IMG/VR virus record: IMGVR_UViG_2778261227_000018
Span: 1 to 5,278 of that record
Strand: one strand, 5' to 3'
DNA: 5,278 nt
From: a virus
Taxonomy: Duplodnaviria; Heunggongvirae; Uroviricota; Caudoviricetes
A model generated the notes under the pieces. It was not told the origin of the DNA, did no database searches, and saw only the letters and a list, made by a program, of their open reading frames with translations. The translations under genes and the position numbers were made by a program. Positions 1 to 1,247 of the stretch are shown here, piece after piece. Position 1 is the first letter of the stretch, and each line of letters starts with the position of its first letter.

Positions 1-573
1 ATGTTTTGCGAAGAAAAAGTAGCTCAAATGGCTGCATACCTACTTCTTAAGAGAGGTGGGCGCATGGCATATCTGAAATTGATGAAGCTGCTCTATCTGT
101 CTAACCGCCAGTCGATTTTGAAGCATGGCAGGATGATCGGCGAAGATAGCCTTTACTCTATGAAATTTGGACCAGTCATGTCGAATACGCTGAACTTGAT
201 TCGCGGTAAGGCTGAAGGCATTGGTGACTACTGGTACAACTTGATAGAGACGAACGGGCATAATGTATCGTTGCGTTCAGATCCGAGGGAAATGGATGCA
301 GACGAGGTCTTTGATGAATTGAGTCGTGCAGATATCCGGATTTTAGATGAAATCTATTCTCGGTATGGGCATATGAACCGATTTGATCTCGCAAATATGA
401 CGCATTTAGAAAGCGTTTGTCCAGAGTGGCACGATCCTGGCAATTCTCGTAAGCCTATAGACCTGAAAGAAATGCTGATCAGTGAGGGTAAAAGCGAGGA
501 TGAGGCTAATCGCATAATTGGCAAAATGGAAGAATCTCAGAAACTTAAGGAATTTTCTTTGCAATTATCATGA
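1..573 (+). CDS. Panacea (DUF4065) domain protein, SocA/GepA-like; candidate PanA-type antitoxin
   Basis: 190-aa ORF in frame 1. The N-terminal core KLMKLLYLSNRQ...(x)...SMKFGPV matches the conserved KLxKLLY...GPV pattern I recall for Panacea/DUF4065 proteins. Stop TGA (571-573) overlaps the ATG of the next ORF (ATGA at 570-573). The ATG at 1-3 sits on the window edge, so the true start could lie upstream. Confidence 0.7.
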   Translation: MFCEEKVAQMAAYLLLKRGGRMAYLKLMKLLYLSNRQSILKHGRMIGEDSLYSMKFGPVMSNTLNLIRGKAEGIGDYWYNLIETNGHNVSLRSDPREMDADEVFDELSRADIRILDEIYSRYGHMNRFDLANMTHLESVCPEWHDPGNSRKPIDLKEMLISEGKSEDEANRIIGKMEESQKLKEFSLQLS

Positions 574-989
574 CGGATTATCAGCCATACAGGAAAGGAA
601 CTGTGCTTGCCCCAACTGGACCATGCAATCATCTTCATGTGATTTGTAATGATCCTGTTTATTACCCCGTTAACGATTGTTATTGTGTTTTAGTTGTTAA
701 TATTTCTAGTATCAAGGATGGTGTCCCCCACGATCCGTCTTGCGTCTTGAATTCTGGTGATCATCGCTTTATCAAGCATCCAAGTTATGTTGTTTACGCT
801 GAAGCTATAATTTGGCGAGTGGATAACATGGTTAGAAAGCAGCGATCGGGTGAGATTTCTGTTCATGATGATATGCCAGAAGCTACATTCAATAGAATTC
901 TGGACGGTTTTGATATCTCTGATGAAGTTACGCCAAAGAACCTTAAATTTAAAAATAAATATTGCGTATCATCTATTGATGATGAGTAA
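570..989 (+). CDS. hypothetical Cys/His-rich protein; candidate toxin partner, possibly PemK/MazF-like fold
   Basis: 139-aa ORF whose ATG overlaps the upstream stop by 4 nt, with no canonical SD within 5-9 nt (nearest AAGGA is about 19 nt upstream), implying coupled translation. By-eye resemblance to MazF/PemK toxins: H-x-x-V...P...C-x-C-V and W-R...K...G...P-E...I segments (IIWRVDNMVRKQRSGEISVHDDMPEATFNRI against MazF IAWRARGATKKGTVAPEELQLI). Stop TAA at 987-989. Confidence 0.6.
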   Translation: MTDYQPYRKGTVLAPTGPCNHLHVICNDPVYYPVNDCYCVLVVNISSIKDGVPHDPSCVLNSGDHRFIKHPSYVVYAEAIIWRVDNMVRKQRSGEISVHDDMPEATFNRILDGFDISDEVTPKNLKFKNKYCVSSIDDE

Positions 990-1018
990 ACAACAGGAAT
1001 TGTTTCGGTATAACTTCT

Positions 1019-1022
1019 GGAG
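1019..1022 (+). promoter_or_regulatory. Shine-Dalgarno (GGAG) for the 57-aa ORF
   Basis: GGAG followed by 6-nt spacer ttttct, then ATG at 1029. Confidence 0.5.
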
Positions 1023-1028
1023 TTTTCT

Positions 1029-1202
1029 ATGGAAGATCAAAAAGCAACCAAGCCACAGGTTAAGTTCGACACAATGAAAGCATTCGTAGGTATGGGTGCT
1101 GCTGTTGAAGTTCTGATGAAGGCTGCTCCTAATGCGTTCACTCACGCTACTGTCTCTGGTAAAGAGCAGCAGGGTAAGCTTCGTCGTCTCAAAGCAGCAT
1201 GA
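1029..1202 (+). CDS. small hypothetical protein (57 aa)
   Basis: Not in the supplied ORF track (below its apparent length cutoff). ATG 1029-1031 is preceded by GGAG (1019-1022) at a 6-nt spacing. Translation MEDQKATKPQVKFDTMKAFVGMGAAVEVLMKAAPNAFTHATVSGKEQQGKLRRLKAA. Codons are dominated by GGT/GCT/GTT/CGT/CTG. Stop TGA 1200-1202 lies about 20 nt before the terminator hairpin. Confidence 0.45.
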   Translation: MEDQKATKPQVKFDTMKAFVGMGAAVEVLMKAAPNAFTHATVSGKEQQGKLRRLKAA

Positions 1203-1221
1203 TCATAGCTGGTGCTTTTTG

Positions 1222-1247
1222 AAAACCCGCCTTCAGGCGGGTTTTTT
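1222..1247. terminator. Rho-independent terminator, bidirectional hairpin between convergent transcription units
   Basis: Stem aaaacccgcc (1222-1231), loop ttca (1232-1235), stem ggcgggtttt (1236-1245), with a T-run 1242-1247 on the plus strand. The reverse complement also has a GC stem followed by TTTT, so it can serve the minus-strand operon ending at 1250. Confidence 0.8.

Follow-up and report, generated by a model that had tools for sequence, protein, structure and literature searches.

A predicted cluster T6 PanAT toxin–antitoxin module in an exchangeable slot of a lambdoid Escherichia coli prophage

Introduction

Why does a lambdoid prophage carry, facing its excisionase-like gene from the opposite strand, two overlapping genes for small proteins, one of them with a Panacea domain? 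This question is raised by the 5278 nt of Caudoviricetes DNA analysed here (IMG/VR record IMGVR_UViG_2778261227_000018, positions 1–5278), referred to below as the window. On its plus strand, open reading frame 1 (ORF1; positions 1–573) encodes a candidate antitoxin of 190 amino acids (aa) and ORF2 (570–989) a candidate toxin of 139 aa. A first-pass annotation, made from the sequence alone, had combined these two genes with the 57-aa ORF3 (1029–1202, plus strand) in a three-gene accessory cassette.

The data presented here indicate that ORF1 and ORF2 (panA and panT, respectively) constitute a two-gene, translationally coupled type II toxin–antitoxin (TA) module of the PanAT family, an interpretation to which a probability of roughly 0.78 is assigned. 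The domain identity, fold, operon structure, synteny, family membership and genomic position of the pair were observed in this study. In terms of classification, it is an ordinary PanAT module: the family was already known, as was a validated member of cluster T6, and ORF1 is already named ‘Panacea domain-containing protein’ in RefSeq. Added here are the assignment to T6, the fold of ORF2, the boundaries of the module, its position relative to the left attachment site (attL) and its hotspot context.

Conserved pairing of panA and panT

ORF1 was matched by the Pfam profile PF13274 (SocA_Panacea) with an E value of 2.2e-19 and a score of 70.9 bits, against a gathering cut-off of 25.7, so that the Panacea identity proposed at first pass was confirmed. 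The Panacea/SocA domain spans residues 27–137; no extra N-terminal domain is present, and the protein has a conserved C-terminal extension of ~50 aa. The gene is complete: phage Lys8385Vzw matches positions 1–1300 with 100% identity, and the start codon annotated there corresponds to the ATG at position 1. The ORF1 stop codon overlaps the ORF2 start codon as ATGA (positions 570–573, plus strand), as can be read directly from the sequence and as had been described previously. This overlap implies that translation of the two genes is likely to be coupled.

It was of interest to determine how consistently the two genes occur together. A full-length alignment with ORF1 was obtained for the gene that precedes each ORF2 homologue, and an ORF1 homologue was situated directly upstream of the ORF2 homologue in 30 of the 30 loci for which upstream sequence was available (6 phages and 24 genomes), in line with the synteny anticipated by the earlier annotation. 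These paired loci span the Gamma-, Beta-, Alpha- and Epsilonproteobacteria. Homologues of ORF2 were found in nine phage records. In all five of the non-E. coli phage records examined (the lambdoid Yersinia phage YeP1, a Vibrio element of the Vinavirales, the P2-like Pseudomonas phage Sirocco, a Klebsiella phage and a Helicobacter prophage), a PF13274 protein is encoded immediately upstream. When a single genome of each bacterial species was scanned, 26 further loci were obtained, and a full-length ORF1 homologue ended no more than 27 nt from the ORF2 homologue in 24 of the 24 scanned genomes with upstream sequence.

The spacing between the two genes ranged from –4 to +27 nt in 27 measured loci, with the –4 ATGA overlap in 13 of them. 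The divergence of the ORF1 homologues and that of the ORF2 homologues were correlated pairwise (r=0.82, a value reached by 0 of 2000 permutations in a Mantel test), and the genes surrounding the pair vary between loci; it is therefore apparent that panA and panT move as a unit. As in PanAT systems generally, two genes no more than 100 nt apart are conserved in at least two species and belong to no longer conserved operon. The reciprocal relationship was also found, in that every retrieved ORF2 homologue with upstream sequence sits behind a PanA homologue.

Some database records over-extend PanA to 232 aa. Separately, Escherichia phage PhiR5_2 (positions 1528–2052) encodes a 174-aa Panacea protein with 40% identity to ORF1. 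Its gene, flanked by a very long ORF and by ibrAB on the opposite strand, may be an orphan panA, since no annotated same-strand partner adjoins it.

Assignment of ORF2 to PanT cluster T6

PanAT systems have been defined, and their toxins sorted into 88 clusters (Kurata et al. 2022, PMC8832971). In Dataset S1 of that study, the antitoxin-first pairs of cluster T6 include those of Pantoea septica LMG 5345 (overlap –4) and ‘Yersiniaceae bacterium 2016Iso4’ (overlap –1). Homologues of ORF2 with 55–56% identity were found in Pantoea septica LMG 5345 and in 2016-Iso4, behind a PanA and with overlaps of –4 and –1, respectively; the Pantoea homologue is identical to the entry ‘MULTISPECIES: hypothetical protein [Pantoea]’, in agreement with Dataset S1. 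Since these two genomes listed under T6 carry ORF2 homologues with the tabulated overlaps, ORF2 is taken to be a T6 PanT.

The T6 pair of Pseudomonas moraviensis (PanA WP_083354365.1 and PanT WP_083201923.1) was scored ‘TA’ in the same study (Kurata et al. 2022, PMC8832971). Its PanT, annotated by HHpred as ‘EndoA/PemK/MazF-family RNases’, was toxic in E. coli, was neutralised by its own PanA and co-purified with that PanA in pull-down experiments. It specifically inhibited protein synthesis, as measured by 35S-Met incorporation (Kurata et al. 2022, PMC8832971). The identity of ORF2 to T6 toxins of the Pseudomonas type is ~44–48%, as estimated from phage Sirocco, which served as a proxy for P. 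moraviensis; the toxicity, neutralisation, complex formation and inhibition of translation ascribed to the present pair are thus those reported for a homologue with ~45% identity. With ORF2 placed in T6, and a T6 member that is toxic, neutralised and bound by its PanA, the original proposal stands, namely that a Panacea antitoxin is coupled to a toxin unrelated to it and that the prophage carries the two as a moron.

The two T6 pairs are alike in several respects. In both, a stand-alone Panacea antitoxin comes first and is overlapped or abutted by a toxin of ~130–140 aa that has no CDD/Pfam domain and a MazF/PemK-like predicted structure. The N-terminal motifs of the antitoxins are also similar: MFCEEKVAQ of ORF1 resembles MIFSEQKVAQ of the Sirocco PanA, and the N terminus of P. 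moraviensis PanA was likewise restored as MIFSEQKVAQ (Kurata et al. 2022, PMC8832971). The P. moraviensis pair was, however, scored ‘NotPhage’, whereas the ORF1–ORF2 copy resides in an E. coli lambdoid prophage.

Membership of ORF2 in cluster T1 was also considered and was rejected, as gp16 of Salmonella phage Emek shows no similarity to the ORF2 profile (hhalign probability 0.1%). The T1 members from E. coli and from phage Emek were scored ‘not toxic’ (Kurata et al. 2022, PMC8832971).

Start codon, family and predicted fold of ORF2

In RefSeq, the Prokaryotic Genome Annotation Pipeline starts ORF2 at a GTG at position 603, which gives a protein of 128 aa (WP_014640052.1). The 11 residues encoded between 570 and 603 are conserved family-wide (P6 at ≥90%, G10 invariant); given this conservation, and the ATGA coupling from the ATG at 570, the RefSeq start is probably too short, and this likely start-codon error is corrected here. 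The resulting protein is Cys/His-rich, as stated previously, with six Cys and six His in 139 aa. It matches phrog_19071, and has no match in NCBIfam or PADLOC. Its close relatives, as retrieved by database search, form 62 clusters, mostly from Enterobacterales. A profile built from 39 relatives retrieved 2681 cluster representatives at an E value of ≤1e-3 among 1.8 billion proteins; ORF2 is therefore a member of a large unnamed family of proteins of ~130 aa.

A confident AlphaFold2 model was obtained for ORF2 with the family alignment (predicted local distance difference test score 90.2, predicted template modelling score 0.83). When the model was searched with Foldseek, the top 36 matches were all MazF, with probabilities of 0.93–1.00 and template modelling scores of 0.45–0.60. 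The predicted fold is thus the SH3-like barrel of CcdB and MazF, a MazF/Kid-like β-barrel core to which two extra C-terminal helices are added. Seven positions are near-invariant among 127 diverse family members (≤50% mutual identity): H21, S/T47, D55, C58, H65, S/T72 and Y76. H21, D55, C58 and H65 are 98–99% conserved (residues 21–76 of ORF2 lie at window positions 630–800) and S/T47 is 99% conserved. The first four are thereby available for testing in a T6 toxin native to E. coli.

Evidence against a PanAT module, and alternative explanations

Several results weigh against the interpretation of the pair as a PanAT toxin–antitoxin module. ORF2 had no Pfam match up to an E value of 10, PemK (PF02452) included, and no match in the PDB by sequence or profile, MazF being absent from the PDB profile search. 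When the 127-sequence ORF2 alignment was compared by hhalign with five MazF, Kid and ChpBK sequences (approximate versions), the result was not significant (E value 0.11, probability 0.5%). The conserved H21/D55/C58/H65 set differs, on alignment, from the canonical Arg/Thr pair of MazF, and ORF2 is acidic (isoelectric point 5.6), which is unusual for an RNA-binding toxin. Seven PanT candidates, all from other clusters, were non-toxic in E. coli (Table S1 of Kurata et al. 2022, PMC8832971). Finally, none of ORF1, ORF2 and ORF3 had a match in PADLOC-DB 2.0 up to an E value of 1, and no anti-phage phenotype for any T6 pair was found reported in the literature consulted. ORF2 is thus distinguished from the toxins of MazEF and Kid–Kis (PemIK) by its profile, its extra helices, its acidity and its conserved residues, and ORF1 is a globular Panacea protein and not an antitoxin of the AbrB/MazE type.

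The register of the non-significant hhalign alignment is topologically sensible: S/T47 falls at the ‘TT’ of MazF, S-x-V at 72–74 falls at ‘SVV’, and the invariant H21 falls at the catalytic Arg. As this register is uncertain and ORF2 is acidic, the chemistry of the active site is uncertain. H21, D55, C58 and H65 might bind a metal or constitute an active site of a different kind, and the predicted chemistry may resemble that of an RNase such as Kid, with His/Asp, or be something else. A charge pattern like that of MazE and MazF, with an acidic antitoxin tail and a basic toxin, was sought and rejected, given the isoelectric point of ORF2 and tail charges of –4 to +3 across homologues.

One alternative is that the genes form a conserved two-gene module which does not behave as a classical TA system in E. 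coli, with ORF2 harmless on its own or triggered by phage, and the pair active in sensor–effector defence or some other accessory role. This would be consistent with the finding that several predicted PanAT pairs, including the T1 pairs of E. coli and a Salmonella phage, are ‘not toxic’ in E. coli, with an acidic ORF2 that lacks the canonical MazF residues, and with a mainly sensory role of Panacea, as has been proposed (Ernits et al. 2023, PMC10440598). However, the sole T6 pair tested is a genuine TA system, in which the two proteins form a complex and translation is arrested; ORF2 is unrelated to the T1 toxins that lacked toxicity (at the hhalign probability of 0.1% given above); and an antitoxin gene placed first and tightly coupled through ATGA is a typical feature of type II TA systems. 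This explanation is accordingly considered unlikely. It appears more improbable still that ORF2, with its CcdB/MazF fold, is a CcdB-like gyrase poison, or has a metal- or thiol-dependent activity that involves H21, D55, C58 and H65 and is not that of an RNase. The fold and the conserved residues would be compatible with such functions; the Foldseek matches are to MazF, and the P. moraviensis toxin arrests translation.

ORF3 and the right-hand boundary of the module

The inclusion of ORF3 in a three-gene cassette was not upheld by comparison with other genomes. ORF3 encodes a basic small protein that matches phrog_2741 over its full length (1.1e-34), and it has the ribosome-binding site of its own that was reported earlier, a GGAG ~8 nt 5′ of the ATG. 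In phage mEp460 and in E. coli O157 prophages, ORF3 and the adjoining excisionase-like gene (xis) are present at 95–98% identity, and an unrelated 177-aa gene replaces panAT. Conversely, ORF3 is absent from 29 of the 29 other PanAT loci, including the 86–87% identical copies of Kosakonia and Pluralibacter. Among 5426 complete E. coli genomes, the xis region was found in 742 and the whole cassette in 193, which places a cluster T6 PanAT in a common E. coli prophage.

Many of the E. coli matches begin at position 1016/1019, and so comprise ORF3 and xis, or at 1281, and so comprise xis without ORF3. The matches of mEp460 and of many E. coli prophages extend from 1016/1019 through ORF3 into xis, and the cargo that precedes them differs. 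This recombination breakpoint across prophages (1016–1019, no strand) falls between the ORF2 stop codon and the ORF3 start codon and is the right-hand boundary of the swappable panAT module. On the basis of these comparisons, ORF3 is judged to be a separate phage-backbone gene that adjoins xis and lies outside the TA pair. That all three ORFs make up one three-component system, with ORF3 as a regulator or chaperone, is scarcely credible: they share a strand and a terminator and occur together in the 193 genomes, but ORF3 accompanies unrelated cargo in mEp460 and O157, is missing both from the 29 other PanAT loci and from sibling prophages with other PanAT pairs, and is split from ORF2 by the breakpoint.

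The ORF3 protein has an isoelectric point of 10, and its length is constant in more than 100 E. coli and Shigella variants, in which it is always beside xis. It was found only in the present prophage lineage, no large database search having been made for it.

Integration site and the cargo slot

In the first-pass annotation, the cassette was described as lying where the integrase gene (int) would be expected, instead of that gene. This description proved to be incorrect. In the circular phage Lys8385Vzw, int is encoded on the strand opposite to ORF1, from which it is separated by 455 bp on the upstream side, and the phage attachment site (attP) falls in between. In the lysogen E. coli O103 RM8385, the order is lexA-dinF-yjbJ-zur-DUF2713, a 105-bp 5′ fragment of dusA, and panA. 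The phage and prophage sequences part within the dusA fragment, 264 nt 5′ of the ORF1 ATG, and this point marks the putative att core (stretch 5540–6000 of Lys8385Vzw; stretch 4737–5000 of RM8385, with the prophage junction at 4643–5000). It is flanked by three TGGGAACCTGT direct repeats, which are probably the arm sites of the integrase.

Given the position of int and the divergence inside dusA, attP lies between int and the cassette, so that, once the phage has integrated, 264 bp separate the pair from attL in dusA. Integration into dusA puts int and xis at opposite ends of the prophage. Integration specific for dusA has been described previously (Farrugia et al. 2015, PMC4482086). Judging from the junctions, the present phage belongs with such elements, and panAT is the first gene pair inside attL in the lysogen. 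The orphaned 5′ fragment of dusA and panA have the same orientation, and no terminator was found between them, so that in lysogens transcription from the host dusA promoter could extend into panAT. Promoter scans revealed one weak sigma-70-like site 127–155 nt upstream of ORF1, in the phage arm, and no signal above chance.

Across E. coli strains, at least five alternative cargos occupy the slot that separates the dusA fragment from xis, the T6 PanAT being one of them. A second consists of PanA WP_000287252.1 and a partner of 182–185 aa with weak, sub-threshold similarity to predicted membrane-protein families; this PanA is the antitoxin of a validated E. coli PanAT with a membrane toxin (Kurata et al. 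2022, PMC8832971). A third PanA is accompanied by a 153-aa partner that retains the D..C..DH.F..S.V motif of the ORF2 family (hhalign E value 0.012). The remaining cargos are a 179-aa protein with a YafO-family toxin (PF13957) in strain 442/2, and the mEp460-type 177-aa gene with ORF3. The 177- and 179-aa proteins were considered as possible Panacea relatives, an idea rejected because similarity was undetectable. It is apparent that the dusA-proximal slot is a swap site for several TA pairs, including the sole experimentally validated PanAT of E. coli. The latter, a membrane-depolarising system, shares with the present pair the identical slot in sibling prophages, from dusA attL to the PrtN-family xis, and the order with the Panacea antitoxin first. 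It differs in having a PanA of 157 aa and an unrelated toxin of 182 aa, and ORF3 is absent from the prophages concerned.

In phage Sirocco, the T6 pair adjoins the portal gene. The cos-proximal gpA–gpQ region is a defence hotspot in P2-like phages (Rousset et al. 2022), and the Sirocco pair is located in it. The context of the slot supports an accessory role for panAT, probably anti-phage or stabilising. A more elaborate pair of linked ideas is entertained as speculative and rather doubtful: that the slot is a dedicated, fast-exchanging hotspot for TA and defence genes (at least five cargos, four of them TA-like) switched on in the lysogen by read-through from dusA, and that the T6 toxin is activated when Panacea senses a phage cue, with a His/Asp/Cys/His centre that replaces Arg/Thr and a chemistry or target unlike those of MazF.

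Proposed mode of action of the T6 pair

In the interpretation favoured here, that of a type II PanAT module, ORF1 would be a stand-alone Panacea antitoxin that binds ORF2 directly and keeps it inactive. By homology to the P. moraviensis T6 member, ORF2 would block protein synthesis. We infer that it is most likely a sequence-specific, metal-independent endoribonuclease. Neutralisation could proceed via the globular Panacea domain or via the conserved 50-aa C-terminal extension, both modes being known among PanAs (Ernits et al. 2023, PMC10440598). The pair would be mobile and self-contained, passing between phages and chromosomes; in the present dusA-integrating lambdoid prophage it is housed in the cargo slot that separates attP from xis, where its expression would be independent of the lytic operon. 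The prophage may benefit in that superinfecting phages are excluded through abortive infection, in that the prophage itself is stabilised post-segregationally, or in both ways.

A Panacea/SocA-domain antitoxin is also found in SocAB of Caulobacter, a type VI TA system. SocA is a ClpXP adaptor. In contrast, the PanAs tested so far bind their toxins directly, the score of ORF1 against the SocA equivalog NF047745 of NCBIfam (14.4 bits) is below the cut-off of 190, and its partner ORF2 has a MazF-like fold and is not a SocB.

Composition, terminator and neighbouring genes

The convergent arrangement described at first pass is correct: ORF1, ORF2 and ORF3, on the plus strand, face a minus-strand gene at 1250–1558, annotated in GenBank and RefSeq as 1250–1531. 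This gene, xis, is the most distal one of the leftward early operon and was also rightly recognised as excisionase-like, as it matches PF11112 (PrtN; 81.7 bits) and phrog_1300 (‘excisionase’). The G+C content of positions 1–1247, which had been judged AT-rich by eye, was computed as 42.0%, compared with 47.5% for positions 1250–5278, and every 1247-nt window of the latter has a value of 46.4–49.6%. ORF2 is the extreme of the cassette, with a G+C content of 38.3% overall and 30.7% at third codon positions. Such a low G+C content supports the possibility that the cassette was acquired separately.

An intrinsic terminator hairpin with an 11-bp stem, six GC pairs and a T-run is situated at 1221–1246 on the plus strand. 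The earlier claim that it is a shared bidirectional terminator is valid for the plus strand, on which the hairpin (–21.5 kcal/mol, z –3.8) is followed by a U-run and was called by the terminator scan. On the minus strand, where it lies just past the xis stop codon, the hairpin has a z value of –3.7, only four U follow the stem, and the scan made no call; the bidirectional claim is therefore only half supported. An Rfam search of the window revealed no RNA family.

Beyond xis, the minus strand encodes a Rv2179c-like exonuclease, a DUF551 protein, Ead/Ea22, a 3′-phosphoadenosine-5′-phosphosulfate (PAPS)-reductase-like protein and a YfdR-type HD phosphohydrolase, a series that is typical of a lambdoid early-left region. 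Comparison of positions 2140–5278 with stretch 8140–11124 of Lys8385Vzw revealed that colinearity is lost beyond the exonuclease gene. The 292-aa PAPS-reductase-like gene of the window (3873–4751) is unannotated in Lys8385Vzw, and the early-left operon is for that reason regarded as mosaic. The DUF551 protein is named ‘valyl-tRNA synthetase’ in GenBank MT225100, which appears to be a mis-annotation.

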